32,000 nucleotides of DNA from Pirellula staleyi DSM 6068 (GCA_000025185.1 CP001848.1:4410001-4442000), one strand, 5' to 3'; shown: positions 5,464 to 22,300, numbered from the stretch's first letter. Made by a program: numbers and translations. Notes: generated from the letters alone by a model not told the origin.

Positions 5464-6767
5464 CCGATATAGCGATGCCAATCGTCGAAGTCTGCGAGTG
5501 GAAGAGTTGTGATCGGCCCGATCTGAATCTCACCGCCGACGATCGCGCTCTTGCGAAATCACTCGCCCAAGAAGGAAAGTGCCGACTGATCGTCGAAGAG
5601 CGGCGTCGTGGAATTCGGATCACAGCACGGTCTTGGGTAGGTGTAGTGCGATTCACTGAATTTGAGGTGCATGTTCGTCCCAAGCTGGCAGGCGATAACC
5701 TGCGACTCCTTCAAATGATTGAGTTCACTACAGGACTCAATACACTCAAACACTACAGTTCTGTATTGAAGTTAGCTGCAGGTGGTGGGAACCTGCTCGA
5801 TCTGATCATGCTGATGTTTGTTGAGGAGTGCGAACGGATCCTTCGTGGCGGATTGCTTTCGGACTACGTTGAAGAGGAAGAGGAACTTCCGGTCGTGCGA
5901 GGTCGAATGCTGTTTGATCGTCAGATTCGCAAGCGATTGGGTCGACTCGACTTGATCCATTGTCGACACGATGAGCGCAAACAAGACGTCCCCGAGAATC
6001 AGCTTCTTGCCTACGTTCTGGATGTCTGCGCGCGGCATGCCTTCCAGCCAACGCTGCGTCGTAAGGCACGACAGCTCGAACATCATTTGCTGGGGAGCTG
6101 TGATCCATCGTTGCTCGATTTAGTGACCACGCGAGGCGGAATCTACTATGACCGCATGAACGAGCACTATCGTGATGCCCATGAATTGTGCTGGCTGATT
6201 GTGGACGCCCTGGGTATCAGCGACATCTATAGTTCGGGCTCCTCGCGCATCTTTGCGTTTCTACTGGACATGAATCGACTGTTTGAAGTTTTTGTGCTGC
6301 AGGTCCTTCGACAATTGACATCTACGACAGCATTAAAGGTTTCGTATCAATCTTCGGATCGCTCGATCATTCGCGACAGCGCGACGAACCAGCCCTACTC
6401 GAGTGTGATACCCGATTTCCTGATAGCGGCCCCCTCATTGTCAGGCAAATTGGTACTCGACGCAAAATACAAACTTTATGACGCAGCAGGAGTCTCTAAT
6501 TCCGACATCTACCAGTCGTTTTTCTATGCCTATGCGTTTGGCCGTCATCAACTTGGTGGTCACGTTGCAGGTTTGATTTACCCTTCGGAATCAACCACAG
6601 CGAGCCGCAAGGAGCTAACCGTGCGGAGCCAATTTAACGCGAATGCTGCACGCGTTGTATTGATTGGCCTTCCCATACCGGCAGTTCTCGATGAAGCGAA
6701 GTCGCACGTCTGGGGACCAGCTACCGCTCCTCTGCAAACTTTCCTCGCTGAGTTCAATAAGGCGTAG
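5460..6767 (+). CDS. mcrC: McrC-like PD-(D/E)xK nuclease subunit
   Basis: 435 aa, translationally coupled to mcrB. C-terminal nuclease motif IPDF...LVLDAKYKLY (~6408-6480) is typical of McrC. The size and the position downstream of mcrB fit. Confidence 0.85.
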   Translation: MTDIAMPIVEVCEWKSCDRPDLNLTADDRALAKSLAQEGKCRLIVEERRRGIRITARSWVGVVRFTEFEVHVRPKLAGDNLRLLQMIEFTTGLNTLKHYSSVLKLAAGGGNLLDLIMLMFVEECERILRGGLLSDYVEEEEELPVVRGRMLFDRQIRKRLGRLDLIHCRHDERKQDVPENQLLAYVLDVCARHAFQPTLRRKARQLEHHLLGSCDPSLLDLVTTRGGIYYDRMNEHYRDAHELCWLIVDALGISDIYSSGSSRIFAFLLDMNRLFEVFVLQVLRQLTSTTALKVSYQSSDRSIIRDSATNQPYSSVIPDFLIAAPSLSGKLVLDAKYKLYDAAGVSNSDIYQSFFYAYAFGRHQLGGHVAGLIYPSESTTASRKELTVRSQFNANAARVVLIGLPIPAVLDEAKSHVWGPATAPLQTFLAEFNKA

Positions 6768-7866
6768 CGACGCCCAGCGGCAAAGGACCGTTTCGAATGT
6801 CTGTAAGTCTGAAGCGAGCAAACAAACGGCAGGGAAGAGGCACTCCTCACACTGAGGGCTCGCGTCTGTAAATCGCAGTCCTGAAGGCTGTCTCAGTGCC
6901 CAAACCGGGGCGGCAGTCGTGGGTCGGCGAGGTAGTACGCCTCCATTAAATGCCATGCTGACCGGTACCAGAAAGCACTGGTGTGATGGCCCGAAAGGCT
7001 GCAGCGGAAGCCCATCTTAGCTATCTCTCACCCAGGAACCATGAGTCTAGCGAGGTGCTGCGATGCCTCGTGTAGCCCTCTCGCCCATCCACGGAATCGG
7101 ATTCATAGGATTAGTTGCATGACACCTGACAACCCAAGTGAATACTCTCCCGACGGCTCGGGGAGTACTGTGGATGGGCAGCTCGGCTGGCCGCAAATAG
7201 GCCGTCGACACTACCCCCGCACCCTTTCCCGCACTCAATCTCCTATCCCTTAGAAGGGGCTACGGAGAGTGTCTTCGTACCAGTAGTCCTACCTCTCGCG
7301 ACCCCGTGAGCGTGGCTGGCTGGGCTCACTGCTGGCCAGAATGCCGTCCCAGAATGGAGCTATAGATGCCAGCAAAGGCTGGGGGCGAGCCCCATTACAC
7401 CCTGGTCCAATGGTGACGGCCGCCCCGGGGTGAGAGGCTAGGACAGCGTAGGGATGTGTGCATGGCGTGCAGGGCTAGACTGCCCGTTTGGGAGGTAGGA
7501 TCACCTTGTCGGGCAAAATCAACAGGTATCATTGATGGCCCGGAACAGCAAAACGTCTCTTTCAATGCGAACGAGTTGTCGATGTCGGGGTGCTTTTGTA
7601 GTGCGATACTCCCTAGCGAATTCGTTCTAGCACCAGTGCTCACGCGTCAAAAACAAGCATCACTTAACTTATACTTGTCAAAAAAAACACAATCTGGCTG
7701 TGTTTTGGCAGACTAGGCGATTTGGGGGTGGGGCCGTGCGGCTATAGCTCAACTTTTGATCGGCTTCACCCTGAGCGTGGCGAATAGGCTGCGATTACGA
7801 GGCGTGTTCGTTCGCGCGCAAATTGTGGGACGAGCTGATAGCCAAACAATGCTGACACACCTCGAC
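6768..7866. other. ORF-poor ~1.1-kb region of normal GC content; candidate structured RNA or decayed gene
   Basis: Only short ORFs (at most 113 aa) with non-protein-like composition in all six frames. Many short GC stems with small loops, e.g. accag-aaagca-ctggt, ccagc-aaag-gctgg, gggg-cgag-cccc and gcc-cgaaa-ggc. Confidence 0.3.
7684..7706. terminator. Weak bidirectional terminator-like hairpin
   Basis: aaaacaca-atctggc-tgtgtttt. It is flanked by an A8 run on the plus strand (T8 on the minus strand) and by TTTT on the plus strand. The stem is AU-rich, so this is weak. Confidence 0.25.
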
Positions 7867-8058
7867 TCACGTGATGTTTGGTGTGCTCCGGATTGGCAAA
7901 TGTCGTTTAGATGAAAACAGACCATTTATTCGGCTGGGATTTTTCAATTCTGATGATCGACAATTGATCTTCAATATAGCGGTCGCAGATTCATCACCGG
8001 GTTCTGCAATAGCTAAAAAAACGCACCGTCTAGTTGTTCGTCTGCTATTGGACCCTCC

Positions 8059-8087
8059 CCCGTATGCGGCTATCTGCCGCATACGGG
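8059..8087 (-). terminator. GC-rich hairpin at the end of the minus-strand clamp/nuclease unit
   Basis: Perfect 12-bp stem cccgtatgcggc / gccgcatacggg with 5-nt loop tatct, 20 nt after the stop at 8107. No U-tract follows. Confidence 0.45.
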
Positions 8088-8106
8088 CTGATGTTGATGG
8101 CTCAAA

Positions 8107-8232
8107 CTAACGTCGTCGTCCGCGACGAAGGCCGACTCCGAATGCTTTGCGGCTACCTAGGGATTTCCCCTGTTGGTAGACCCATGCACCTACCACAAGG
8201 ACGACGACCACCAAGATGATAGATTCGATCAC
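8107..8232 (-). CDS. Small single-pass membrane peptide with an Arg-rich tail (41 aa)
   Basis: GTG at 8232 is preceded by AGGAGA with a 6-nt spacer. Product (M)IESIILVVVVLVVGAWVYQQGKSLGSRKAFGVGLRRGRRR. The longer 96-aa ORF (8107..8397) overlaps the nuclease gene and is unlikely to be real. Confidence 0.35.
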   Translation of the reverse strand: MIESIILVVVVLVVGAWVYQQGKSLGSRKAFGVGLRRGRRR

Positions 8233-8288
8233 GCGAATTCTCCTATTGCACAGTGTTTGTAGATTCGTGTTTTCAATAGTTTGCAAAA

Positions 8289-9113
8289 TCAGCCCTGCCA
8301 ACTGCGGCAAGGCTTTTGAAACGGACAGTTGGGGCAGTTCATTGGCGATGGAATGGGGTAGACGATCCCGCGCCGCATCGCTTGCCAAACCTGCCAAAAA
8401 ATGGATCGAGTCCGCTTAATCCGCGCCGAGTCGATGCTGATCTTGCGCATTTCGACGACAGGCGACTTCGACTTCGTTACCACCAGGAATTGCAGCCGAA
8501 TTGGCTTGCCGGGCATTAGCTCCTTAGCGAGCTCGGAATAGAGCATTAGCTGTCCGCCGCTGTCGTGTGCCTGATGCTGGCTCCATCGGCTTTTCGCAGT
8601 TTTAAGATCCGTCACTACCAGTTCACTGCCCTCGTCGAGTATCAAGTCGACACGAGCAAGTAGTTCGGGGCACCCCTCTACGATTCGACCGCGCAGTTCT
8701 TCTTCTACCCCAACGATTTGGCCGTTCGGGTTTGCCAAAGGACTTGCTCGGAAGGCAGACAGTACACGTTCGGCGAGATCGCTAAGTGAGTTGATGTCTT
8801 CGTCTTTGCCGAACTTGATGCTGGCAAGATCGCGTTCCAGCCACGCCGCATGATAGGCGGAAAGCAGTGTATCCAAGGCCGGAGCTGGATTACCTGACAA
8901 GAGTTCGTAGTAATGTAGTTCGGCAGCTTGGTGGATCGCGCTGCCAAAGACCAAGCTGGACGATACGAAGGCCTCTGGAAGACCGTGGACATACCGAAAA
9001 CACCAGCGCAGTGGACAAGCCTGATACGTCGATATCGCTGACCACGAGATGTAATTTCTGCCCGTCAGTTTCTCAGCTACTTCGTTGGGGTCGACGTCGA
9101 GCTCAAGACTCAT
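8289..9113 (-). CDS. Cas4/RecB-like PD-(D/E)xK exonuclease with a 4-Cys (Fe-S type) arrangement
   Basis: N-terminal Cys in YQACPLRW. Core RVDLILDE...LVVTDLKTAKS (8581-8630). C-terminal CPNCPFQKPC, giving the C...CxxCx5C pattern of Cas4/AddB nucleases. The ATGA start overlaps the upstream gene at 9110-9113. Confidence 0.8.
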   Translation of the reverse strand: MSLELDVDPNEVAEKLTGRNYISWSAISTYQACPLRWCFRYVHGLPEAFVSSSLVFGSAIHQAAELHYYELLSGNPAPALDTLLSAYHAAWLERDLASIKFGKDEDINSLSDLAERVLSAFRASPLANPNGQIVGVEEELRGRIVEGCPELLARVDLILDEGSELVVTDLKTAKSRWSQHQAHDSGGQLMLYSELAKELMPGKPIRLQFLVVTKSKSPVVEMRKISIDSARIKRTRSIFWQVWQAMRRGIVYPIPSPMNCPNCPFQKPCRSWQG

Positions 9114-9565
9114 CGTCCCCCTCCGCTGTCGCTGGTCTGAGGCTTAAACGCATCAATCAGTTCCGAAGCCTCCGTGATCGATAGTTCGTCGGCCCGTTTG
9201 ACACCGTAGCGAGCAGCAACTTCTGATGCTAAGTCGATCGCTTGGCGAGTTGCGATACCGTGGAGCGCGCGAACCTGGCTGGCTGTTGCGCTCCGTCGCT
9301 TTGCTGGATGTTGATGACGGCCGCTACCATGTCCGTTGCCATTAGCGTGGCCGTTGGTCGCCGGAGGTGCCGCTTCGCCTTTCAGCTCCTCCTCAACGGC
9401 TTCTTTCGCGAGCCGAAACAAATAGCGAATCTTCTCGCGCAGTTGGTCCGGTTCCCGGACGAGGCTCGACTCCAGTTCGACCTCCAAGTTTACGCTCGCT
9501 CCTCGCGAGCCATAGTTCGCTTCACCGACTTTGCGGTTAAGGCCGACATTCATCGTAAGTGGCAT
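9110..9565 (-). CDS. Hypothetical protein (151 aa) with a His/Gly/Asn-rich linker
   Basis: GGAGC 7 nt upstream of the ATG. Translationally coupled to the nuclease gene. No motif recognised. Confidence 0.65.
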   Translation of the reverse strand: MPLTMNVGLNRKVGEANYGSRGASVNLEVELESSLVREPDQLREKIRYLFRLAKEAVEEELKGEAAPPATNGHANGNGHGSGRHQHPAKRRSATASQVRALHGIATRQAIDLASEVAARYGVKRADELSITEASELIDAFKPQTSDSGGGR

Positions 9566-9630
9566 GATCTGCTCCGACTTGAAATGGACAACAATAGATC
9601 GAAACGGTGGAGTCGCTTGGCCACCGTTTG

Positions 9631-11079
9631 CTACGCAACATGCTGCAACTGTTTGAGCGAAGCTAGCGCCGACTTGAGTGACTTCTGGCTGCGCTTTTCG
9701 ACGTTGATCTGCCGAATCAGATCCTTGACTGCATCAAGCGTTGATCGCAGTTGGTCTCGCACGACGACAGCCTGCTCGTAAGCTCCACCTGGCCTTTTCG
9801 GCGATGTCGCGGAGCAATGGCGATTGGGCGAGTGCTTCGCAGCGACTCGCGGCTCATTCGTAGGTGGAGCTGAAGAAGCCTGTTGCGCGGCTGGTCTGGA
9901 AGCAATTCGATTCACCGCAATTGCACTTCGAGTAAGTGAGCTAGGTTGACGGTGGCCGGAGCTAAGCGGCGACTCGATGCGAAGGCAATCGGTGGTCGGC
10001 TTGATCGCCTCTTTGGGATCGAGAACCATCCACAAAAAGACGCGGGAACCGTCACGGGCCACAGCAGGCGACGTGTTGTCGGGCAGTTCGATCTCTGTAA
10101 ATCCCAATCGCGCCGCTCGCGCCAAGTACTGGCGATCTGTGCAAACGAGCAGATCGTCGCCTCGCTTACTGGAGTTGCGCAGAACCATCTCGGTGGGGCG
10201 AAGAGTGTCAGGAGCTGAGGCTCGGAGAACGACGTGTCCATTGACGTCGAGCGTCAATTCACGATTCGTTGTGCCGCTCGGGAGTCGATGGAGATTTTCG
10301 GTCAGGAACTTCGCATCGGTAGAACCGAGCTGTAGCGTCGCCTTACTGTGGCCAGGCGCGGGAACAGTTCTGTCCACATCGGGGTAGCGTCCTTCGACGA
10401 CAGGCAGCCAATACGACCAGGGGCCGATCTGGAACACGACCATCTTGTCGCCGCTCTTGCCGACTCGCACCGGCTGATCAGCGGGGAGATGCTTGCTGGC
10501 GAAGAGCTTCGTTTGGCAGAGTAGCAAATCCTCGTCAAATCCAAACGTGAAGCCGGATTGCTTCAGGAGTTGTCGGCCATCGGTGGCGGCAATCACCCCT
10601 TCGCGGCCGCGCACCTGGATGCTTGCGAGTGCGTAGCGACTGCTTTCGGCATCGGTAGTTTCGTATGCTTCGCGCAGTGCAGTCAGAAGCGCGGGCGGAT
10701 TCTCGCTGAAGGTCTCCGGCAGAGTTGGGAACGGTGGAGCATCCGCACTGGATTCAGGAGCATCGTACTCCAGATCGCGCACAATACCTCTGTCTTCCCA
10801 GTTCGCGCCGAGCACGCCGTCGCGGCGAGAGTCTAAATAGACCGGCTCAGGTTTCGATCCCTGAACGTCCTCCAGCACGTTAAACGGAACGAGTAAGTGC
10901 TGCTGCTCACGAGGCTGCGGATCGTGATATCGCAGAGCTTGATTGGCCCCTTGGACATCGATGAACAAGCCATCCTGTCCCGCGCGAAACGCAAGAGCGG
11001 GTATTGGGCCTCGGCCTGGAAACAACATTTTGACCATCGAGCGAAGTTGTTTGGCCAGCAGACGGGAAATTTGAATCAA
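9631..11079 (-). CDS. DNA polymerase III beta sliding-clamp homologue (DnaN-like) with a ~110-aa C-terminal extension
   Basis: SRYALASIQVRGREGVIAATDGRQLL (10561-10600 region) matches the (S/T)RY.L.G...ATDGHRL clamp signature, about 150 aa from the N-terminus as in DnaN. Start chosen as TTG 11079 with AAGGAG 8 nt upstream. The 552-aa track ORF has an implausible N-terminal extension. Confidence 0.75.
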   Translation of the reverse strand: MIQISRLLAKQLRSMVKMLFPGRGPIPALAFRAGQDGLFIDVQGANQALRYHDPQPREQQHLLVPFNVLEDVQGSKPEPVYLDSRRDGVLGANWEDRGIVRDLEYDAPESSADAPPFPTLPETFSENPPALLTALREAYETTDAESSRYALASIQVRGREGVIAATDGRQLLKQSGFTFGFDEDLLLCQTKLFASKHLPADQPVRVGKSGDKMVVFQIGPWSYWLPVVEGRYPDVDRTVPAPGHSKATLQLGSTDAKFLTENLHRLPSGTTNRELTLDVNGHVVLRASAPDTLRPTEMVLRNSSKRGDDLLVCTDRQYLARAARLGFTEIELPDNTSPAVARDGSRVFLWMVLDPKEAIKPTTDCLRIESPLSSGHRQPSSLTRSAIAVNRIASRPAAQQASSAPPTNEPRVAAKHSPNRHCSATSPKRPGGAYEQAVVVRDQLRSTLDAVKDLIRQINVEKRSQKSLKSALASLKQLQHVA

Positions 11080-11167
11080 GGCTAGGACTCCTTGGTGATT
11101 GCAGAAGATCGAAAAGGGGGCAGCAGCCCGATTGCTGCCGCCGTGAAAAAGCCAGCACACAGCGTCG

Positions 11168-11359
11168 TTAGGCCGCGTAGTTTCCTCGCGCCAGATCGAG
11201 CATGTCCCAATCCACCGTATTGGGATCAAGGTTTTCTTCTTCCTGCTCGATCGGAAAGACTTGCAGTGGCGAAATGATGCTGAATCCACGACGACTGACA
11301 GTACGGACCGATTCGCCGGTGGCTTCCGCCACAGCTTGGTTTAGTTCTGCTTGGGTCAT
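11168..11359 (-). CDS. Small protein (63 aa); N-terminus resembles HU/IHF helix 1
   Basis: Internal ATG 11359 is preceded by GAGGAG. MTQAELNQAVAEATGESVRTVS resembles the MxKxELxxAVAExTGxS start of HU/IHF proteins, but the protein is too short to be a full HU. Confidence 0.45.
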   Translation of the reverse strand: MTQAELNQAVAEATGESVRTVSRRGFSIISPLQVFPIEQEEENLDPNTVDWDMLDLARGNYAA

Positions 11360-11390
11360 GTAAAATCTCCTCAAACAAGTAGTGACAAAC

Positions 11391-11427
11391 AAAAAAGGCT
11401 CGCCAGCGCACGCGCGCAGAACGAGCC
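11391..11427 (-). terminator. Intrinsic terminator splitting the minus-strand block into two units
   Basis: Minus strand reads GGCTCG-ttct-GCGC-gcgt-GCGC-tgg-CGAGCC followed by TTTTTTGTTTG. It lies between the stop at 11473 and the next start at 11359. Confidence 0.55.
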
Positions 11428-11472
11428 CGACAAATGGCTTGAGCAAAATTCAAAAGAGAAGCGCAGCGAGCG

Positions 11473-11718
11473 CTAGACAGCTGGTGTAAGCCAATGCTCT
11501 GCCAGCCAGGCCACCTCGGCCGCTAAGGCGTCGCTGCGAGATTCAAACGGCCCTAGAGTAGGACCGGAAACCGGTGACAGATCGCAGAGCCAGCGTCCCT
11601 GCGAATCGGGCTCGACGTGCGATCCTCGGCGAATGGTGAGTAGTCCGAACTGCGCGAGGTCAATCGCTTCGCTGTAGATGCAGCGCAGGTCGCCGCTGGG
11701 TTCAATGACTAGCTCCAT
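11473..11718 (-). CDS. Hypothetical protein (81 aa)
   Basis: ORF starts 9 nt after the upstream stop (operon packing). Normal composition. No motif recognised. Confidence 0.55.
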   Translation of the reverse strand: MELVIEPSGDLRCIYSEAIDLAQFGLLTIRRGSHVEPDSQGRWLCDLSPVSGPTLGPFESRSDALAAEVAWLAEHWLTPAV

Positions 11719-11726
11719 GGGGATAG

Positions 11727-12671
11727 TCAGCCCTTTCCCCGGCGCAGAATGTTACGGCGAGGCTTATCGACCAGCAGGCCGTCAAGCGTTGCTTGAACGG
11801 TCGAGAGCTGTGTGGCGATTTCTTGCCGGAGCGCGGCATCGTCGCGCAGTTGCTGTGGCTGGACTCCCGAAACGATGCTGCGGGCATCGGACACTAGCGA
11901 GTCGAGCTGTTCATTGGATCGTACATTGAGTTGCCGGAAGCGCTCGAAGAACTCACGCAGGTTCTCGATGGCCGAGTCGCGGAAGATTTTTGGCTTGCCG
12001 TCGTCGCCACCGCTAAGCCGCTCCGTGAGATGCGAAACGAGCTTCGCCAGTTCTTCTGTGAACGCTTGTTCGGCAAGCTGAACCGCTTCATCGAATCGCG
12101 CAGCAACACGGGCGGCTTCGCGCTCGTAAAGCTGCGGCGCGAGCCGATGGAGATAGTTGGGCGGTTCCACGGACGGAAAATCCCAACTCACGTCGAACCA
12201 ACCACGCAGCGTCGCCGGATAATCACTCGCGTTGTAGAGCGACCCGAGCCTGCGACGGGCGGCCGACTTCAATTCGTCGTACCGAGTTTCAAGTTGCCGC
12301 ACCGATTCTTCCAGCTCCTGCCGGAAGGTCGTGAGCTGCAGCGAGAACCCTTCGATCATGACTTGGCGAATCAGGCGAATCCCCGGCTCGGGAAACGGGA
12401 GCGAGACATTCCGCCAGTACGCAAGAATCTGGGTTCGTACACTCGTGACCGCTTTGAAACTGGGATGGGACGTATCGAGCAGCTTCTTCCCGGCTGACAG
12501 ATAGGTTCGCTCGGCCCCGAAGGTCTCGGCCGCTTGCGACTTTTGTTCGGCGCTGAGGGTCTTACGGACTCCAAGCCAGGTGAACATGACGCGGACGGCT
12601 GCCGTCGTGGCGCGCAGTCGCTCCACCGAATCGCTGGCCGCATTAGAAAGATCGTCTAATAGTGTGGGCAT
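11727..12671 (-). CDS. Hypothetical helical protein (314 aa), possibly DUF3150-like
   Basis: AAGGAA 6 nt upstream of the ATG. Long predicted coiled/helical segments. The DUF3150 assignment is from memory of family-like length and context only. Confidence 0.6.
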   Translation of the reverse strand: MPTLLDDLSNAASDSVERLRATTAAVRVMFTWLGVRKTLSAEQKSQAAETFGAERTYLSAGKKLLDTSHPSFKAVTSVRTQILAYWRNVSLPFPEPGIRLIRQVMIEGFSLQLTTFRQELEESVRQLETRYDELKSAARRRLGSLYNASDYPATLRGWFDVSWDFPSVEPPNYLHRLAPQLYEREAARVAARFDEAVQLAEQAFTEELAKLVSHLTERLSGGDDGKPKIFRDSAIENLREFFERFRQLNVRSNEQLDSLVSDARSIVSGVQPQQLRDDAALRQEIATQLSTVQATLDGLLVDKPRRNILRRGKG

Positions 12672-12716
12672 GAAGATTCCTTGGAATTTGGTTAAGAGTT
12701 AGGGGGCGATGGAGAG

Positions 12717-13280
12717 CTACGCCGCGCGGCGAAGGCCAAGCGACTTGCCGATTTCAAACGCTGGTAACGGTGATGGCCTGACAGGGATGATCCGCTGGAA
12801 CCGCTGCATCACCTCGTCGCATTGTTGCCGTAGCTGTCGTCGCGGCCCGCGATACAACTGCCTGCGAAACGCAGTGAGTGTTTCGGCGAACTCCCAGACT
12901 GGCAGTGCGGCTGTCACCAGTTCGCCATCGTGCAGTGGCAATGAACACTCGCCGATTTCAGGGCGATACACGGTGAGTGTCTCACCGCCGTCAAACCCGG
13001 CTTCGGTTTGGAGATCAAACGGGATTCGTCGCTTGCGGAGGAACGCTTCGAGCGGCTCCATCCGCCCATGACGGGCCTCTGCATCCAACAGACGCAGTAC
13101 ACTTTCGCCGTCAATTGTTTGCCGCGCGGCGAGTAGATCGTCCGCCGACTGTGGCAAGAATGGCTCATCGCCCCAATCGAGGGCGACTCGCTGCAAGCGA
13201 ATCGTTGAACACAGACTTGGCACGATCGCCCGTGAAAGGCAGCCGCCGATGGTGATTTGAGCGGCGCGAAAATCCGACAT
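12717..13280 (-). CDS. Hypothetical protein (187 aa)
   Basis: Internal ATG 13280 (MSDFRAAQ...) is preceded by AGGAG 8 nt upstream. The upstream extension to 13355 lacks an RBS. Confidence 0.6.
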   Translation of the reverse strand: MSDFRAAQITIGGCLSRAIVPSLCSTIRLQRVALDWGDEPFLPQSADDLLAARQTIDGESVLRLLDAEARHGRMEPLEAFLRKRRIPFDLQTEAGFDGGETLTVYRPEIGECSLPLHDGELVTAALPVWEFAETLTAFRRQLYRGPRRQLRQQCDEVMQRFQRIIPVRPSPLPAFEIGKSLGLRRAA

Positions 13281-13363
13281 CGGACATCTCCTGAAATATG
13301 AAAAAGTTTGTTGGGAATGCGCATCCACTACGCAGCGGACGCGCTGTAGCAACACAAGTTCCC

Positions 13364-14854
13364 TTAGTTCTGCGACGGATCACGCGAGACTTTGCGGCGA
13401 GCCTTGGTCTCCGCCGCGCACCGGTAGATCCCAGGTTGGTCGGCACTGAGGCAGCGCCCCGATGCCCACGCGCGCAACTTGCTGACCGATTCGGCGGCAG
13501 TGACGGCGACTGGCACGACGTTCTGTGCAGCCTGAATCAGCGGCAGGTCGAGAATTGAGGCCAGACGACAGCAAGCTCGAATCTCAGCGCCTGTCCAACC
13601 TTCGTCAGGAGGGAGTCGTTGGCGAGCATCGAGGTCAAACTGATGGAGGTACAGTCGCCAAATCGCTTGACGCTCCTCCTCACCTGGCAAGTTCAAAAAG
13701 AAGACACCGTCGAAACGCTCAGCTCGCGAGAACTCGGGAGGTAGCCGCGAAATGTCGTTGCACGTGGCAACTAAGTAGACATCACTGGTGTGATCGTTCA
13801 TCCAAGTGAGCAGCGAACCGAACAGCCTTGCCGAGACACCGCTATCACCGCTGCTTCCAACACCCGAGAGACTCTTTTCAATCTCATCTGCAAACAGGAT
13901 GCAGGGGGACATGGCGTCGGCAATCTTGAGCGCCTGCCGAATATTGGATTCCGACTGACCGACGAGGCTCCCCATCAGTGCGCCGATATCGAGCGTAAGT
14001 GTTGGCCTGCCAGTTTCGTGCCCCAACGCTTTGGCAAATGCGCTCTTCCCTGTGCCAGGTACACCCAGCAGCAGCACACCGCGCGGACGCTTGTGAGGCT
14101 GTCGCTGTGAAGTGTGCAGCAACGATCGCTTGCAAAATGCTTTCAGTGCTTGGAGTCCTCCCAAGCTCTGAAAGTCCTGCTCACTTCGATGCAATTGCAG
14201 CAGACCACTTTTCTTTAGCTGTTGCGATTTGAGTTCCCAAAGTGGTTGGGGTTCGATCCTTCCGTGTCGAACAAGTGAGAGGCTAAATGCGTTCTCAGCT
14301 TCGTGTCGCGTAAGGCCTACCGCCGCATCCAGAACGCGATCGAGCCCCGCTCCCGAAGGAAGCTCTCCCTCTTCTGTCGCTACTTCCTGGGCAATCGACC
14401 GTAGCTGCTCGCGTGACGGCAGCTCATGCTCCATCACCACGAATAACTTTTCGAGCTCCACCGGAATCTGAACGATCGGCGCGAGAATCACCAATATGGT
14501 TCGATTCTGTTTACCGGCCACGATCTGACGAGCGAGTGCCTGAACAATCTCTGCGCTCTGCAGGAATCGGTGGAAATTCTGAAGCACGAGAATCGCAGTG
14601 CCATCGGGGGTCGCCAGACCGTTGATTGATCGGATTGCCGCGAGTGGATCTTGGCCACCGCTTTCCGTGGGGGACGATTGTGCTGCGATCACCAATCCCG
14701 ATTCGATGTCCCAAGTGGCCATGTGCCATGCAGGTTGTTGCTGCTCACACATCTGGCGGATTTCAGTGAGAGCGTCGGAATGTTCGTGGGATTCAATCCA
14801 TAGTCCGCTGAAAGCAGCGGCAATGTGTTCTTGCAGTTGGGTAGCTAAGGACAT
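13364..14854 (-). CDS. Classical-clade AAA+ ATPase, Ycf46-like (496 aa)
   Basis: Walker A GVLLLGVPGTGKS (14041-14080), Walker B CILFADEIEK (13873-13902), and an FtsH/Cdc48-type second region of homology. ATG 14854 is preceded by GGGAGGTG. The N-terminal domain MSLATQLQEHIAAAFSGLWIESHEHSDAL resembles Ycf46-type proteins. Confidence 0.88.
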   Translation of the reverse strand: MSLATQLQEHIAAAFSGLWIESHEHSDALTEIRQMCEQQQPAWHMATWDIESGLVIAAQSSPTESGGQDPLAAIRSINGLATPDGTAILVLQNFHRFLQSAEIVQALARQIVAGKQNRTILVILAPIVQIPVELEKLFVVMEHELPSREQLRSIAQEVATEEGELPSGAGLDRVLDAAVGLTRHEAENAFSLSLVRHGRIEPQPLWELKSQQLKKSGLLQLHRSEQDFQSLGGLQALKAFCKRSLLHTSQRQPHKRPRGVLLLGVPGTGKSAFAKALGHETGRPTLTLDIGALMGSLVGQSESNIRQALKIADAMSPCILFADEIEKSLSGVGSSGDSGVSARLFGSLLTWMNDHTSDVYLVATCNDISRLPPEFSRAERFDGVFFLNLPGEEERQAIWRLYLHQFDLDARQRLPPDEGWTGAEIRACCRLASILDLPLIQAAQNVVPVAVTAAESVSKLRAWASGRCLSADQPGIYRCAAETKARRKVSRDPSQN

Positions 14855-15088
14855 AGCACCTCCCTGGAAATTTGAATGTTGCGCGGCATCCAAAACGGTG
14901 AGCCGAAGAAGAAACCTTGCTGCAACGAGCAGTAGGTCTTTAGAAGTCACAGCGCGAAGGCGCATAGCCCTGCCCTGCGATCGAAATGTTTGGTTGGCCA
15001 AGACTGATTAGGAGCGACAGCGAGTATGGCCTGCTGCTGTATGTGATAGGAGTTGAGTTCTGCAGTGATCGCAGACGCGAGAAATCGA

Positions 15089-15286
15089 CTAACCGGCTCG
15101 CCCCTCGTGCGATTGTTGCTGTGTCGATGGAGTGTAGAACTCGCTGGTCAGCTTCTCGGATGTCACAGCTCCTAGCGCCTGCTCTAAGTAGGCCGACGCG
15201 GACTTGCATTCTTGACCGCCAATTCCTTTCGTGTGAATGGAAAGTTGACCACTCGTTGAAATAATCACTTCGATGATCTGGCTCAC
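15089..15286 (-). CDS. DUF2997-like small protein (65 aa)
   Basis: (M)SQIIEVIISTSGQLSIHTKGIGGQECKSASAYLEQALG fits the DUF2997 pattern (I.V.I.pdG.v.i..kG..G..C......le.aLG). The GTG start overlaps the upstream stop (GTGA), and GGGAGG lies upstream. Confidence 0.65.
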   Translation of the reverse strand: MSQIIEVIISTSGQLSIHTKGIGGQECKSASAYLEQALGAVTSEKLTSEFYTPSTQQQSHEGRAG

Positions 15287-15651
15287 GCTGCACCTCCCAC
15301 ATGGATGGTCAGTTTGATCTCGCCGCTGGGAAGTGTTTGCTCGGTGACGGAATGTCCGCGTTTACGAGCCTCGATCTTCGCTTTTTCAGCAGCGTAGGCT
15401 TGCAGAAACTTGTCGAGTTCAGCTTGCTCCCCCCAGCGCCCGCCATAGTTGTCAAAATCAACCCGCCCACTGCTGACATCAACGACAGCCGGATATTTCC
15501 AGCCTGGTAGCTGAACGATCAGTCCTGTTTTCGTCGTAGTAAATAGCTTCGCTGTGCCCTGCGTCGGTGCCGGAATTCTGATCCGCCGACAGGCAGCATC
15601 CACAGCCACTGGATCACGAACTTGCGTTTGAATCTGAACAATGTGTGACAT
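15283..15651 (-). CDS. DUF1257 (Ycf35-like) protein (122 aa)
   Basis: MSHIVQIQTQVRD...LPGWKYPAVVD...DNYGGRWGEQAELDKFLQAYA matches the remembered DUF1257 pattern (MSHFS.I.T.I.D ... GW.YP ... Y.G.WG). AGGAGG 8 nt upstream of the ATG. Confidence 0.72.
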   Translation of the reverse strand: MSHIVQIQTQVRDPVAVDAACRRIRIPAPTQGTAKLFTTTKTGLIVQLPGWKYPAVVDVSSGRVDFDNYGGRWGEQAELDKFLQAYAAEKAKIEARKRGHSVTEQTLPSGEIKLTIHVGGAA

Positions 15652-15737
15652 GGGTTATGTCCTCCTAGCGGAAGGTAGATCGAATAGCTCGCAGCAGAAG
15701 GCAGGAGCATCGGGATGGCCAGATTGGCCACGAGTGA

Positions 15738-15771
15738 GCGTGAACTTTACAAATGCTCGCAAAGTTCACGC
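15738..15771. promoter_or_regulatory. 11-bp perfect palindrome upstream of the DUF1257 operon (candidate operator)
   Basis: gcgtgaacttt (15738-15748) and aaagttcacgc (15761-15771) with a 12-nt spacer. It lies 87-120 nt upstream of the 15651 start and downstream of the J-domain gene terminator. Confidence 0.4.
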
Positions 15772-15898
15772 GTCGTGATGGATACACTCCACCACCAACT
15801 CTTTATGACGCAATTGATGCGGCTATTTAGGCTCGGCTTTGGCCTGTAGATGGACGCGCAATCTCGGTAGCAATCGCGTCGAACTTGGGCGAAAACAA

Positions 15899-15925
15899 GA
15901 AGGCCCCGCAGGGGCATATTCCTTC
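15899..15925 (-). terminator. Intrinsic terminator of the J-domain/protease gene
   Basis: Minus strand reads GAAGG-aatatg-CCCC-tgc-GGGG-CCTTC followed by TTGTTTTC. It starts 66 nt after the stop at 15991. Confidence 0.5.
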
Positions 15926-15990
15926 GGCGAATAGCAAGCTGGTAAAGCGATGCTCTGCAGAATTGGCTCGAATGAAAGTGGCTCCGTCAG

Positions 15991-17649
15991 CTACTCTTTG
16001 CGACCGTAGCCACAGCCCGGACAGTGACCTACCGAGTACATGGTGTAGGAGTTTCTTTTGCACTGGGGACACTCCACTTCTCCCCACCCTTTCTTCGCTA
16101 TTCCATTGTCAGCAGGAATTGACTTTTGAGAGTTGTCCTCGACGCTTGCACTACGAAATGTTTTTGTGATCCAAGCACCTGCGGCTGCTAGAACTGCAGG
16201 AACGACAATCCATAGGAGATATCCGAAACGCGAAAGCCGAAATGCCATACCAAGTATGTCTGTTTTTTGGTGTGTACTTTTTGAATTTCTCTCTCGCTGC
16301 GTCTGGAGGGCTAGTGGTGCATTTGGGCCAGTGCTATTGATGGAAGTGTCGAGACCTGTTGAATGCTTGGAAGATTCCTGATCGCCGACAGCGGCTGCGA
16401 CGCCGTAGACCTGGCCGATCAGCTGAGCTGCTCCTGCGGGATTGGCGTCGGCCCAAATCAACTCGGCGGACGAAACTTCGTCGGCGGAAATGGCCATTGA
16501 TAACGCAGCACCATCGGCTCCACGTGTGTTAATACCGATCCAGTGGTATCGTTCACCTTGGCGTAGAAATAATGGTCCACCACTGTTGCCAGGACTGATC
16601 GACGCATCGTGTTGTATCCACGTGGCCCCCGAAGTCGCGCTCTTGGGAGCCCGCAGTGAGCTAATTCTTCCGAACGTCATGCTGTTAGCAAACAAAATGT
16701 CAAGTGGCGTACCGACTGCAACGACTTCGCCACCATTTTTCACTTCGAGTACTTTCATCGCGTTAGAGACTTTCGGGACAACGACGTAGTCCAAACCGGC
16801 AACCAGTCCATTGGGATTCACTTCGATGCACGCGACATCGAGGTTGGGATCGGCCGCAAGGCCGACTCTCTCAGCTCGCCGCTTGGCTCCCGATGGAAAC
16901 TGCACCTCCAGTGCAAACTGTGTGATGTTCGCAGTACGATCGCGCTGTTTAGTTGCTCGACCAGCAACGTCTTCCAAACCAATCACGTGCGCGTTGGTAA
17001 AGAGGCGCAGCTTGCCACCGGTATTTTCAGTAACAACCGACGAGCCTAGTTTGATGAGAGCCTGCGAGAAGTCTCTTTCATTCACAGTTGCTACGATTGC
17101 CGGTGAAGTCTTCTCTAGATCGTCGAATCGGAGTGACGAAACGCCGCCAGAGAAAAGCGACATCGATAGCAGAATCAACGCTAACACTGCCACAGCGCCG
17201 CTGCCGACGAGAGCCAGTATCTTTTGTTCGTCTCGTTTGGTCGTGCCAAGATACGCGAGCCATGTGGCGCATCCCAAGCCTGCGAGACCCATGACTATAA
17301 ACACAAGTCGCCAAACTGATTGCAACAAACAAAAGGTCATCAGCAGCACAACGGTCACTACAGCGACTGCCACCCATCGCTGCAGAAGCCATTGGACTAC
17401 TGGGTGAATTGCGGCTAGAGCTGTATTAGTAGGTGCTTTTGGCCCGCTCTTTTCTGGAATGGTGAGCTCGGCATTGCCCGGTTGGCCCAATTTTTTCATT
17501 AGCTGTTCATAGGCGACTAGCACCTGTTGGTAGGCCCAGCTGTCGCCTCCCGAATCGGGATGATATCGCTTTACTCGCTCGCGATAGGCCGCTTCGATTT
17601 GATCTATGGTGGCGTCGTCGTCGAGGCCGAGAATCTTGTAGGGAGTCAT
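15991..17649 (-). CDS. Membrane protein fusing a J-domain, TM helices, a trypsin-like (S1/DegP-type) serine protease, a further TM helix and a C-terminal zinc ribbon
   Basis: YKILGLDDDATIDQIEAAYRERVKRYHPD (HPD at 17554-17562). Several hydrophobic helices at aa ~85-170. Candidate triad TNAHVI / DVACIEV / GNSGGPLF (~16566-16595). TM helix YLLWIVVPAVLAAAGAWI. C-terminal CPQC...CPGC. Confidence 0.85.
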   Translation of the reverse strand: MTPYKILGLDDDATIDQIEAAYRERVKRYHPDSGGDSWAYQQVLVAYEQLMKKLGQPGNAELTIPEKSGPKAPTNTALAAIHPVVQWLLQRWVAVAVVTVVLLMTFCLLQSVWRLVFIVMGLAGLGCATWLAYLGTTKRDEQKILALVGSGAVAVLALILLSMSLFSGGVSSLRFDDLEKTSPAIVATVNERDFSQALIKLGSSVVTENTGGKLRLFTNAHVIGLEDVAGRATKQRDRTANITQFALEVQFPSGAKRRAERVGLAADPNLDVACIEVNPNGLVAGLDYVVVPKVSNAMKVLEVKNGGEVVAVGTPLDILFANSMTFGRISSLRAPKSATSGATWIQHDASISPGNSGGPLFLRQGERYHWIGINTRGADGAALSMAISADEVSSAELIWADANPAGAAQLIGQVYGVAAAVGDQESSKHSTGLDTSINSTGPNAPLALQTQRERNSKSTHQKTDILGMAFRLSRFGYLLWIVVPAVLAAAGAWITKTFRSASVEDNSQKSIPADNGIAKKGWGEVECPQCKRNSYTMYSVGHCPGCGYGRKE

Positions 17650-19399: not shown

Positions 19400-22300
19400 A
19401 TGGACGTTTTCAAGTTGCGAGAAGATGTGATTCACGACTACGCAGAGTACGTGCGTAGTTTTGTTCGCATTCGTGAGCCACGCCTTCGGCGCTTTGTTGA
19501 CGATAGCCTGACGGACCAAGCGCTTTGGCCGCAGCCGCTGATCCAGATGAATCCCAGCTTTGAATCAGGTGGGTGGATTGACGAACTGGTCGATGCGGGT
19601 GTTCTGCACCAGAAGTCCAAAGATGTCTTTCGAGTTAAGACGGAATCTGACCCGCGTGGGATACCAATGCGACTCCACCGACACCAGGTGGACGCCATCC
19701 GAGAGGCGCAGGCACGCCGCAATTACGTTCTGACCACTGGGACCGGCTCTGGTAAGAGCCTCGCTTACATTATTCCCATCGTCGATCAAGTTCTCCGAAA
19801 CGGTCGCGGCAAGGGTATCCAGGCCATTGTCGTGTATCCGATGAACGCTTTGTGTAACAGCCAGTACGGGGAACTCGAAAAGTTTTTGCGGCTGGGATTC
19901 GGAGAGGGGTCAGAACCCGTCCGCTTCGAGCGTTACACCGGCCAGGAAACACGCGAGAAGCGCGAGGAGATCACTCGAAATCCTCCGGACATCCTGTTGA
20001 CCAATTACGTCATGTTGGAATTGCTGCTAACTCGCCCATTCGAACAAGCACTCGTCAGTTCCGCACGCAATCTCAGCTTTCTCGTCCTCGATGAACTACA
20101 TACCTATCGGGGGCGACAGGGAGCGGATGTCGCATTGCTTGTCCGTCGCGTTCGTGAAGCCTGCCACGCAACATCGCTTCTCTGTGTGGGCACTTCGGCC
20201 ACAATGGCAAGTGGCGGGACTATCAACGAGCAGCGTCTTGAAATTGCCTCGGTCGCTTCGCGATTGTTCGGAACTGAGGTTCTACCCAACTCGATCATCG
20301 GCGAGACCCTGACCCGTGAGACCATCGAGTTGGATTTCAGCGATCCGCAGGTCGTCTCTCGCTTGCAGCTCGATGTTACCCAAAAGGACGGCTTCCCAAC
20401 GAACTACGATGAGTTCATACGGAAACCAATCGCAAGCTGGCTGGAAGACTGCCTCGGCCTGACTCGCGAGAACGGCACGAATCGACTCGTTCGTGCCCGT
20501 CCGCAATCAATTCAGGGGCCAAGTGGTGCCGCCAAACAGCTATCCGATTTGGTGGGAATGACTGTCAAGGATTGCGAAGACGCCATCGAACGCTGGCTGC
20601 TGGCGGGGTGCAATTGTCATCCTCACCCCGAGACCAAACGGCAGCCTTTTGCTTTTCGGCTCCATCAGTTCATCAGTCGCGGCGACGCGGTGTTTGCATC
20701 GTTGGAGGAGAATGACCACCGGCATTTATCGCTCAGCGGACAACAATTCGTACCGAACAGCGATCGTAAGAAAATCCTGCTTCCATTGGCTTTCTGCCGA
20801 GAGTGTGGCGCGGAATACTATTCCGTCTGGAAATCGAATGATGTCGGAACTGGCCGAGTTCATTTCCGGCCCCGTGACCTGAATGACCGGGTCGAAGATC
20901 CCGCCGAAGGCGAGGCGGGCTTTCTCTATCGTGATCCAGAAAAGCCTTGGCTAGACGATCCTGATGAGATTGTACAGCAGCTGCCGGATGATTGGCTGGA
21001 GGAGCATCGCGGTCGGCAACGTGTTCGCAGCAACCTCCGTGATGACGTTCCGCAACCCATAGTGATTGGCCCCGATGGAACCGTCGACGCACAGGGATTG
21101 ATCTATTCTTACACGAGCACGCCGTTTCGCTTTTGTCAAAACTGCGGTGTCTCTTACCGCGTTCGAACTGGAGCTTCTGATTACGGACAACTGGCCACGC
21201 TCGCGAGCGGGGGACGTAGCACTGCCACGACTATCCTCAGCTTGTCGAGTGTCCGCCTGCTGCGGAACGAGCCAACGCTTCAGAACTTTGCACGAAAGCT
21301 CCTCAGTTTCACAGACAATCGGCAGGACGCTTCGCTTCAGGCTGGGCACTTCAACGATTTCGTGGAAGTCAGCTTGCTGAGGTCGGCGCTCTACAAGGCC
21401 GTTGCGGCGGCGGGCGAAGCTGGGATTTCGCACGATGAACTAACGCAACGCGTCTACAAGGCACTGAACCTGCCGTTCGAACTCTTTGCCCGCGAGCCAG
21501 GCGTCCAGTTTGCCCAGCGAGCCGATACGGAACGAGCCTTCCGAAATGTTCTTGGGTATCGCCTCTATCGAGACCAGAAACGCGGATGGCGAGTTACATC
21601 TCCGAATCTCGAACAGTGTGGGTTGCTGCGAATCGAATATCCGTCGTTGATGGAACTTTGCAGGGCAGGAGAGTTCTGGCGTGGAACTCACGCTGCTCTG
21701 ACAACTGCCACTCCGCAAACCCGCGAGCGTATCGCGAAAGCCCTGCTGGACTACCTACGTCGCGAGCTGGCGATTGATGTCGATTATCTGACCACGGAAT
21801 TCTTTGAACGGTTGCAACAGCAAAGTTCGCAGCGACTCCGTGAACCGTGGGCCATCGACGAGCAGGAACGCCCAGAAGTGGCTGCGGCCGTATTCCCACG
21901 TGGCCGGCGCCCCCATGATCGTCAGTTCTACACATATGTGTCGGGGAGGAGCGGATTCGGGATTTTTCTCGGTCGACCAAGTACCCTTCCAGAATTTGAT
22001 CGCTCACAGGGAAAACTGAAGCTCACCGATAAAGATTCAATCATTCAGGATCTGTTCCGGGTACTTGCCAACGCGGGCTACATCGTCCAGATCGTTGAAC
22101 CCACTGATGACGACCTTCCGGGTTACCAGCTCTCCGCATCGGCCATGAATTGGGTCGTTGCCGATGGGACAGTCGCATTTCATGATCCGATCCGTGTTCC
22201 CAATCCTCCGCAGGATGGTGGCCAGACCAACGATTTCTTCGTCAATTTTTACAAGACCGTGGCCAACGATCTCCGTGGACTGGAGGCTCGGGAGCATACG

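Follow-up and report, generated by a model that had tools for sequence, protein, structure and literature searches.

The six-gene series at 11473-15651 of a 32,000-nucleotide (nt) stretch of the Pirellula staleyi DSM 6068 chromosome (CP001848.1:4410001-4442000; this whole stretch is called the window below) opens with a DUF1257-like gene, a DUF2997 gene and the gene of a classical AAA+ ATPase, all on the minus strand. It holds the core of a conserved, selected and translationally coupled gene set that is found on phages, plasmids and genomic islands, in or beside genes for replication and recombination, and that has two slots for cargo genes. We propose, tentatively and with a probability of about 0.45, that the series is the upstream half of a cassette of ~8.3 kb, a conserved mobile-element backbone of phage or plasmid ancestry that now lies among defence genes on a planctomycete chromosome, and that its AAA+ ATPase remodels proteins. 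DUF1257 (Ycf35), DUF2997, the Ycf46-like ATPases and DUF3150 are widespread families for which we know of no function; that four separate families travel as one module turns them into one testable machine.

One line of evidence is the constancy of the core across distant hosts. A scan with one genome per species gave 155 stretches with relatives of the ATPase, of which the best 80 were kept as loci L001-L080; the ATPases of L001-L050 are 49-78% identical to that of the window and nearly all belong to Planctomycetota. Co-occurrence was counted in 27 related Planctomycetota loci with sufficient flank and in 16 distant loci, mostly from Acidobacteriota. The DUF1257-like gene, the DUF2997 gene, the DUF3150-type gene and the gene of an 81-amino-acid (aa) protein are each present in 25 of the 27 related loci, and together with the ATPase gene they form a complete set of five in 23. 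The original prediction had put six genes into one co-occurring set, but the sixth, the gene of a 187-aa protein, has a homologue in just 1 of the 27 loci and falls out of it. Among the distant loci, 15 of 16 contain DUF1257, DUF2997, AAA+ and DUF3150 genes together. The association of the first three genes, which had been described as a conserved one, is real and widespread, and it is annotated as such on plasmids of Manganitrophus and Geminocystis.

The core also occurs on plasmids and phages. The triad is found on plasmids of Manganitrophus, Geminocystis and Thermovibrio, and the annotation of the Manganitrophus plasmid reads AAA, DUF1257, DUF2997 and DUF3150, after which comes a homologue of the 81-aa gene. 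A Bacillus thuringiensis megaplasmid carries the ATPase and DUF2997 genes, and a search with a hidden Markov model (HMM) found no DUF1257 relative there. The core occurs on plasmids of four phyla and, when phages, plasmids and islands are taken together, in at least six. A scan of the IMG/VR viral contigs with an alignment of the closer relatives of the window's DUF3150-type protein gave 27 contigs with a DUF3150 homologue, and in all 27 an AAA+ gene stands just upstream of it; the scan with the single window sequence gave no match. In two of the viral loci (L099 and L100) a large terminase subunit is encoded 4-6 kb from the five core genes, and in two others (L107 and L110) DUF3150 is followed by a RecT-like annealing protein and a helicase. 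The lytic-type Rhizobium phage L338C has the AAA+ gene, a DUF1257-like gene and DUF2997 immediately 5' of the genes for DnaB and Pol I. The neighbours of the core in Acidobacteriota include an SNF2 helicase, Gp157, SSB, an AEP primase, a recombination directionality factor, a radical-SAM protein and PRTRC-type ubiquitin-like genes. L096, L097 and seven genome loci encode a large serine recombinase close to the module. Genomes hold 2-4 copies of the module, which are 69-97% identical; the assembly of Anatilimnocola floriformis has three copies of the DUF3150-type gene, and two of them were located on the 6.25-Mb contig that is given as the longest for all three.

The six ORFs (open reading frames) and all the other features that had been read from the sequence alone are present where they were placed. 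The first gene (15283-15651, minus strand) encodes a 122-aa protein that had been assigned to DUF1257. It misses the Pfam threshold for this family (PF06868, Ycf35; 14.4 bits against a cutoff of 22.2, E=0.045) and matches with its C-terminal half only, but a remote relation is suggested at the level of profiles. An HMM built from its family alone matches a protein annotated as DUF1257 by PGAP at 1.7e-7, and in hhalign 102 columns of the family align to bona fide DUF1257 proteins (E=0.0033), but with a probability of 9.7%. We take it as possibly a divergent relative of DUF1257, short of a proven member, through a link that is transitive and made between profiles. PADLOC, NCBIfam and PHROGs, which were scanned with the window proteins together with Pfam, contain no family for it (Rfam was used for RNA). 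The gene always stands directly 5' of DUF2997 in the loci compared, and in the window its stop overlaps the start of the second gene as GTGA at 15283-15286, as had been predicted.

The identity of that second gene (15089-15286, minus strand; 65 aa) as DUF2997 was borne out: it covers the full model PF11211 (positions 1-47) with 60.5 bits against a cutoff of 24.1 (1.4e-16), and it also matches phrog_23133 at 4.4e-6. The invariant residues of the DUF2997 family are G13, G21, G24 and C27, in the motif G-x7-G-x2-G-x2-C. The family of the first gene has an invariant N-terminal Met-Ser-His and a single invariant cysteine (C21). A metal or redox site shared between the two small proteins is conceivable. 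Profile searches of the PDB with both families returned nothing significant.

The third gene (13364-14854, minus strand) encodes a 496-aa protein whose prediction as a classical AAA+ ATPase is well supported: it matches PF00004 with 99.4 bits (2.7e-28) and, over its full length, phrog_8638 (4.7e-89). Its translation contains an intact Walker A motif (GVPGTGKS), Walker B motif (LFADEIEK) and arginine-finger region (RAERFD), and also LVGQSE, a motif like that of pore loops. Homologues are abundant: 6887 proteins score E<=0.001 among 8000 candidates scored. Among the 120 matches listed, identity is 67-76% (one has 100%), and those that carry a name come from Planctomycetota. Matches on cyanobacterial plasmids are 32% identical. 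The Joint Genome Institute (JGI) labels homologues 'SpoVK/Ycf46/Vps4 family', which is a name at the level of COGs. The AAA domain (residues ~306-480) matches IetA in PADLOC (1.7e-20) and NCBIfam (2.3e-18). The N-terminal ~250 aa (14090-14854) are distinct; their weak matches are to RFC subunit 5 (its AAA+ module, E=0.004) and to the ATPase domain of an i-AAA protease (E=0.19). This region could be a degenerate AAA domain that has no P-loop, which would make the protein a tandem AAA protein. A variant architecture is seen in one copy from A. floriformis (L089 8024-9757), whose ATPase of 577 aa has an N-terminal match to Pfam PIN_12; in this locus no ORF was matched by the DUF1257 or DUF2997 profile.

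The fifth gene (11727-12671, minus strand) encodes a 314-aa protein that had been suggested to be DUF3150-like, and this suggestion gained support from its relatives and from its model. The window protein itself does not match Pfam DUF3150 (PF11348) even at E<=10, but 13 of 32 aligned members of its family do, the best at 8.3e-8, and the Manganitrophus homologue is annotated as DUF3150. Its AlphaFold2 (AF2) model has a predicted local distance difference test (pLDDT) score of 77; in BFVD it finds a viral 'DUF3150 domain-containing protein' (E=1.1e-12, 306 aligned columns) with template modelling (TM) scores of 0.66 and 0.70. The fold search of the PDB with this model gave no match (best E 0.18), and nothing significant came from a PDB profile search with the family. 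A weak fold match (probability 0.82, TM 0.34-0.38) was seen to an uncharacterised 275-aa protein of mycobacteriophage Dylan. In cluster O phages an AAA homologue (gp96) is followed by a gene of ~266 aa (L084 6676-7476, Corndog gp95), and the pairing of ATPase and DUF3150 may extend to these phages. The sixth gene (11473-11718, minus strand) encodes the 81-aa protein and is tightly coupled to the fifth: their spacing is at most 20 nt in 33 of 41 loci and 26-1959 nt in the remaining eight. The protein has 52-53% identity to the product of the gene that adjoins DUF3150 on Manganitrophus plasmids, and it has no family in PADLOC, NCBIfam or PHROGs.

On conjugative plasmids of Burkholderia and Rhodovastum, a DUF3150-like gene lies between the gene of a ~340-aa ATPase, whose annotation reads ATP-binding or AAA family, and that of a VWA protein; on the Burkholderia plasmid it is also near PRTRC (ParB-related, ThiF-related cassette) genes and genes of a type IV secretion system. 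The link of DUF3150 to an ATPase is therefore kept across two different ATPases. By eye, the ~340-aa protein of these loci (L087 8822-12092; L088 7830-11060) is MoxR-like, and it has no family match.

Two junctions within the core vary strongly among relatives, both in length and in gene content. The distance from DUF2997 to the ATPase gene (slot 1) ranges from 7 to 2017 nt, if L040 with its partial ATPase match (-685) is left out, and that from the ATPase gene to DUF3150 (slot 2) from 43 to 5734 nt in loci of the Planctomycetota type, with small negative values in two distant loci. Other copies hold in these places a 71-aa gene, a zeta toxin, a combination of ARPP-1, WGR and a homologue of the 187-aa protein, or an XRE regulator with two unknown genes. 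As judged from such comparisons, the two junctions appear to act as insertion slots for swappable cargo. One family of slot 1 in some relatives (F39) had looked Toprim-like by eye; Pfam gave no match and we dropped this reading.

This variability, with the rarity of the 187-aa gene among the related loci, identifies the fourth gene of the window (12717-13280, minus strand) as the cargo of slot 2 and the 234-nt gap at 14855-15088 as an empty slot 1. Among the loci examined, the 187-aa gene occupies the same slot only in L092, the closest relative of the window's cassette, and in L093-L095, and its own family comprises 325 representative clusters. Its AF2 model is of high confidence (pLDDT 93); there was no fold match (best E 0.53) or profile match in the PDB, no Pfam match and no family in PADLOC, NCBIfam or PHROGs.

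The gap had been noted as unexplained, and a conserved structure or a small RNA had been considered. It is indeed untranslated in the frame of either neighbour: more than 100 homologues of the ATPase measure 491-501 aa, in agreement with the ATG at 14854 that has GGGAGG just 5' of it, and it is this agreement of lengths that makes the gap real. A conserved structure or small RNA finds no support. Rfam gave no match over the whole window at the gathering threshold, nor over 14700-15950 at E<=1; the predicted RNA fold is no better than that of shuffled sequence (z-score -0.22); and blastn of the gap, and likewise of the upstream region, the region of the 187-aa gene and the terminator region, against L001-L080 gave no matches. 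The gap is 81.2% identical to L092, the lowest value of all segments and inside the range of third codon positions (75-89%), which suggests that it evolves near-neutrally.

Comparison with L092 extends the unit well beyond the six genes. Positions 8109-16434 of the window align with L092 in a single unbroken blastn match (8345 nt, 90.4% identity); the flanks beyond these limits are unrelated, and we regard the aligned part (minus strand) as the whole cassette of ~8.3 kb. The gene order in L092 is identical: an 85-aa ORF, the six genes, and four further genes that encode a 63-aa protein, a homologue of the beta sliding clamp, a 151-aa protein and a nuclease. All these genes show conservation of the coding type. 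In every gene of the cassette, conservation against L092 is lowest at third codon positions, and the genes are thus under purifying selection.

The unit had been expected to end at a terminator behind the 81-aa gene. A GC-rich hairpin (GGGCUCG...CGAGCC) followed by the U-tract UUUUUUGUUUG does lie at 11391-11428 on the minus strand and looks like an intrinsic terminator, but four conserved genes continue beyond it. The intergenic segments 11359-11472, which holds this hairpin, and 11080-11167 are 95.5-95.6% identical to L092 (95.6% for the first alone), and the genes of the cassette 88-95%. As both segments are more conserved than any cassette gene, they are likely to be regulatory, and an attenuator or an internal promoter may be suggested. 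They flank the gene of the 63-aa protein (11168-11359, minus strand), which has GAGGAG 5' of its ATG at 11359 and belongs to a family (F16) present in 17 related loci besides the window; an HMM finds the gene in 19 of the 27. A further hairpin follows its stop within 11080-11167.

The ribosome-binding sites had been described as strong on each gene, which holds for the first (AGGAGG), third (GGGAGG) and fourth (AGGAG) genes and is slightly overstated for the fifth and sixth, where the sites are weaker (AAGGAA, GGGGAAAGGG). The palindrome reported upstream (15738-15771) is also present, with perfect arms of 11 nt (GCGTGAACTTT / AAAGTTCACGC) and a 12-nt spacer, 120 nt 5' of the first gene; it is possibly an operator of the window copy. 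It is retained in L092 only, with one mismatch, and it is absent 5' of the homologous gene in 45 other loci, so that we rejected it as a conserved operator.

The second half of the cassette, all on the minus strand, points towards DNA metabolism. The gene at 9631-11079 starts with a TTG at 11079 after AAGGAG and encodes a 482-aa protein with a disordered tail and a C-terminal helix. Its family profile matches beta clamps in the PDB (1.1e-5; clamp residues ~147-365) and the protein matches the processivity factor phrog_947 (1.9e-7), by which it is homologous to the clamp domains of the beta sliding clamp (DnaN) superfamily. The 151-aa protein (9110-9565) is conserved in its N- and C-terminal parts, with a low-complexity linker between them, which gives it the appearance of a two-domain protein; it has no family in PADLOC, NCBIfam or PHROGs and no PDB profile match. 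The stop of its gene overlaps the start of the last one (8289-9113), whose 274-aa product is a PD-(D/E)XK nuclease like Cas4 and RecB, with matches to PF12705 (7.9e-33), TIGR00372 cas4 (1.6e-9) and the exonuclease phrog_69 (2.7e-19). In about one third of the Planctomycetota copies, this clamp and nuclease part is replaced by genes of ubiquitin-like, E2-like, JAB and ThiF proteins.

In the reading that we prefer, the backbone would consist of the DUF1257-like protein, DUF2997, a classical AAA+ ATPase of the hexamer type, the DUF3150-fold protein and the 81- and 63-aa proteins, followed in this copy by the clamp homologue, the 151-aa protein and the Cas4-like exonuclease. The ATPase would be a hexameric remodeller of proteins, with the DUF1257/DUF2997 pair as its adaptor or regulator, and the DUF3150 protein with its 81-aa partner could be its platform or its substrate on the replication and recombination machinery of the element. 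Jointly, the parts may serve the replication, recombination or establishment of that element. Several points speak against this proposal. The 32-kb window contains no integrase, transposase, structural or replication-initiator gene; searches of the window with tblastn and HMMs found no recombinase or remnant of one; and the search for element ends gave short repeats at chance level, with no flanking direct repeats. The mobility of the window copy can for these reasons not be shown. Some of the counts of multiple copies come from metagenome bins, which can merge strains. DUF3150, the DUF1257-like protein, DUF2997 and the 151-aa protein found no solved structural relative in the PDB searches, and we know of no interaction, substrate or phenotype for any core family. 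Moreover, the flanks of the cassette, McrBC (2926-6767) on one side and a block of DEAD/MZB helicase, UvrD and SNF2 genes on the other, would fit a host defence cassette equally well.

Such a host anti-phage system, in which the clamp and DUF3150 would sense foreign DNA or its replication, the AAA+ protein with its small partners would activate or regulate, and the Cas4-like nuclease would be the effector, is a reading that we consider unlikely. It agrees with the place of the cassette between McrBC and the helicases, with the CBASS (cyclic-oligonucleotide-based anti-phage signalling system) genes beside the L092 copy, with the reverse transcriptase, N6-methyltransferase and HATPase genes beside L089 and L090, with the lack of integrase and structural genes, with the resemblance of the AAA domain to IetA in PADLOC and with the presence of a nuclease itself. 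However, the clamp and nuclease half, which would contain the effector, is swapped in many relatives while the core stays, the core lies in the part of a Rhizobium phage of lytic type that serves replication and on contigs that bear a terminase, genomes carry 2-4 diverged copies, and PADLOC matched no system beyond single domains. Phages and plasmids also carry defence systems, and the occurrence of the core on them therefore weakens this explanation only in part. That phages, plasmids and islands from six phyla or more share the core can also be turned round to argue for counter-defence or establishment: on entry or induction of the element, an AAA+ unfoldase, targeted by DUF1257/DUF2997 and DUF3150, would dismantle host defence or host proteins that are bound to DNA. 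Neighbours in relatives (SSB, AEP primase, ParB, PRTRC genes and a methyltransferase-like protein with an NPPY motif seen by eye) and the conflict-type genes in the cargo slots would suit such a role. The argument is made purely from context, we found no similarity to known anti-defence proteins, and on phages the core sits among replication and recombination genes, not obviously among early anti-defence genes; we hold this reading to be distinctly unlikely.

The label 'Ycf46 type' that the original prediction gave to the ATPase implies a housekeeping chaperone set equivalent to Ycf35-DUF2997-Ycf46 of cyanobacteria and plastids. The domain families are the same, the JGI name of the ATPase homologues includes Ycf46, and the cyanobacterial DUF2997-Ycf35-fed7 cluster is the only published context that we found (PMC4284462). 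Both sets have the two small-protein families as an adjacent pair and a ~500-aa ATPase with one C-terminal classical AAA domain, and the function is obscure in both. Unlike the cyanobacterial and plastid set, that of the window is borne by mobile elements, patchy, present in several copies with flanks that vary even among close relatives, and linked to genes of DUF3150, a clamp homologue and a nuclease; it lacks a ferredoxin, its host is a non-photosynthetic planctomycete, and its first protein stays under the Pfam threshold for DUF1257. An equivalence of the two is hardly credible. A gene for a Fer4_12/radical-SAM protein (NrdG/QueE-like) is seen inside the module in Acidobacteriota (L051-L080; for example L063 9222-12420) and on the B. 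thuringiensis megaplasmid (L086 5080-5721). The module may have a recurring link to Fe-S proteins, for which Fed7 beside the cyanobacterial DUF1257/DUF2997 pair could be compared.

A last reading, improbable and offered as speculation, starts from the genes that replace the clamp and nuclease: a CDC48-like AAA+ protein with DUF1257/DUF2997 adaptors and a DUF3150 platform would be the unfoldase arm of ubiquitin-like conjugation systems of mobile elements (PRTRC- and Bil-type), and the window copy would be a variant in which the ubiquitin-like arm has been swapped for a clamp and nuclease arm. If true, prokaryotes would have a counterpart of the ubiquitin-p97 axis, with which phages and plasmids clear tagged proteins from DNA or defence complexes. 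As in the DUF3150/PRTRC regions of proteobacterial conjugative plasmids and integrative and conjugative elements, a DUF3150-like protein adjoins an ATPase on a mobile element, and the relatives in Acidobacteriota have PRTRC_E, Prok_Ub and Prok-E2_D directly 3' of DUF3150. The partner ATPase of Burkholderia and Rhodovastum differs in being the ~340-aa protein with a VWA protein downstream, and the window lacks genes for a ubiquitin-like protein, E2, JAB, ThiF or ParB: HMMs made from the genes of the relatives find no ubiquitin-like, E2, JAB or E1 protein among the window ORFs of at least 40 aa. Likewise, Bil (BilABCD) resembles the third of Planctomycetota relatives that have ubiquitin-like, E2-like, JAB and ThiF/E1 genes directly 3' of the core, whereas the window copy lacks all four and has the clamp, 151-aa protein and nuclease genes instead; the tie between ubiquitin-like genes and core is one of adjacency alone. 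The four-gene set right after the core (ThiS/Ub-like, E2-like, Prok-JAB and ThiF) can be seen at L016 11245-13798 and L097 11380-14191, and also in L007, L010, L011, L013, L017, L018, L021 and L034; its E2-like protein has a Cys-rich C-terminal region and, by eye, an HPH...C motif.

Two further systems invite comparison. With lambda Red and RecET the cassette shares a PD-(D/E)XK exonuclease that is translationally coupled to a small upstream gene, and in viral relatives DUF3150 is followed by a RecT-like protein and a helicase; the window, however, contains no recognisable annealing protein, and the AAA+, DUF1257, DUF2997 and DUF3150 proteins have no counterpart in Red or RecET. The Iet system (IetA-IetS) is approached through the AAA domain, which matches the IetA models, but this domain alone does so, at 66.5 bits against a cutoff of 510, and the cassette has no gene for the IetS protease.

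What was already known, then, are the component families, which are catalogued, and the triad, which is visible in annotations; our literature search found no description of these DUF families as a mobile-element module. New are the extension of the core by DUF3150 and two small proteins, the distribution of this core over phages, plasmids and islands, the cargo slots, and the alternative clamp-nuclease or ubiquitin-like modules. Within this large, uncharacterised family the window copy is an ordinary member. The module is present in cultivable systems, namely Rhizobium phage L338C, cluster O mycobacteriophages and plasmids of Bacillus and Burkholderia. The two cargo slots are places in which to seek new defence and counter-defence genes in Planctomycetota, and the repeated presence of ubiquitin-like conjugation genes beside the core offers a lead on how these systems may couple to a bacterial unfoldase.

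The flanks of the cassette deserve a short description. At its upstream end, the 85-aa ORF, with a membrane helix and a zinc ribbon (15991-16248, minus strand), is a separate ORF in L092 (7025-7282) to which it is 87% identical. In the window it is in frame as the C-terminus of a 552-aa ORF with DnaJ, membrane and trypsin-like parts (15991-17649). The left breakpoint of homology, at 16434, falls within this longer ORF, which may be chimeric, an in-frame fusion made by the rearrangement that altered the left flank. The window copy is flanked by McrBC at one end and by the DnaJ/trypsin ORF and the helicases at the other; L092 has the CBASS genes upstream, and downstream a DUF123 gene and a gene with a faint ParB_N match.

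The helicase block consists of three large plus-strand genes in a row (19400-29870), which encode an 1845-aa DEAD/Helicase_C protein, a UvrD-like helicase and an SNF2 helicase. The 1845-aa protein has MZB (MrfA zinc-binding) and DUF559 domains, an architecture like that of YprA and DrmA, and the trio is probably a defence system. The McrBC pair (2926-6767), just downstream of the cassette, includes an McrB-like protein of 845 aa with AAA_5 and EVE domains; EVE domains are usually taken as readers of modified bases. Between McrC and the nuclease gene lie 1.5 kb (6768-8288) that contain no convincing ORF. Within them, 7355-7846 is 80.5% identical to L092 17510-17999, and the 66-codon stretch 7513-7710 matches a called 68-aa gene there; in L092 the extra DUF123 gene sits between this stretch and the nuclease.

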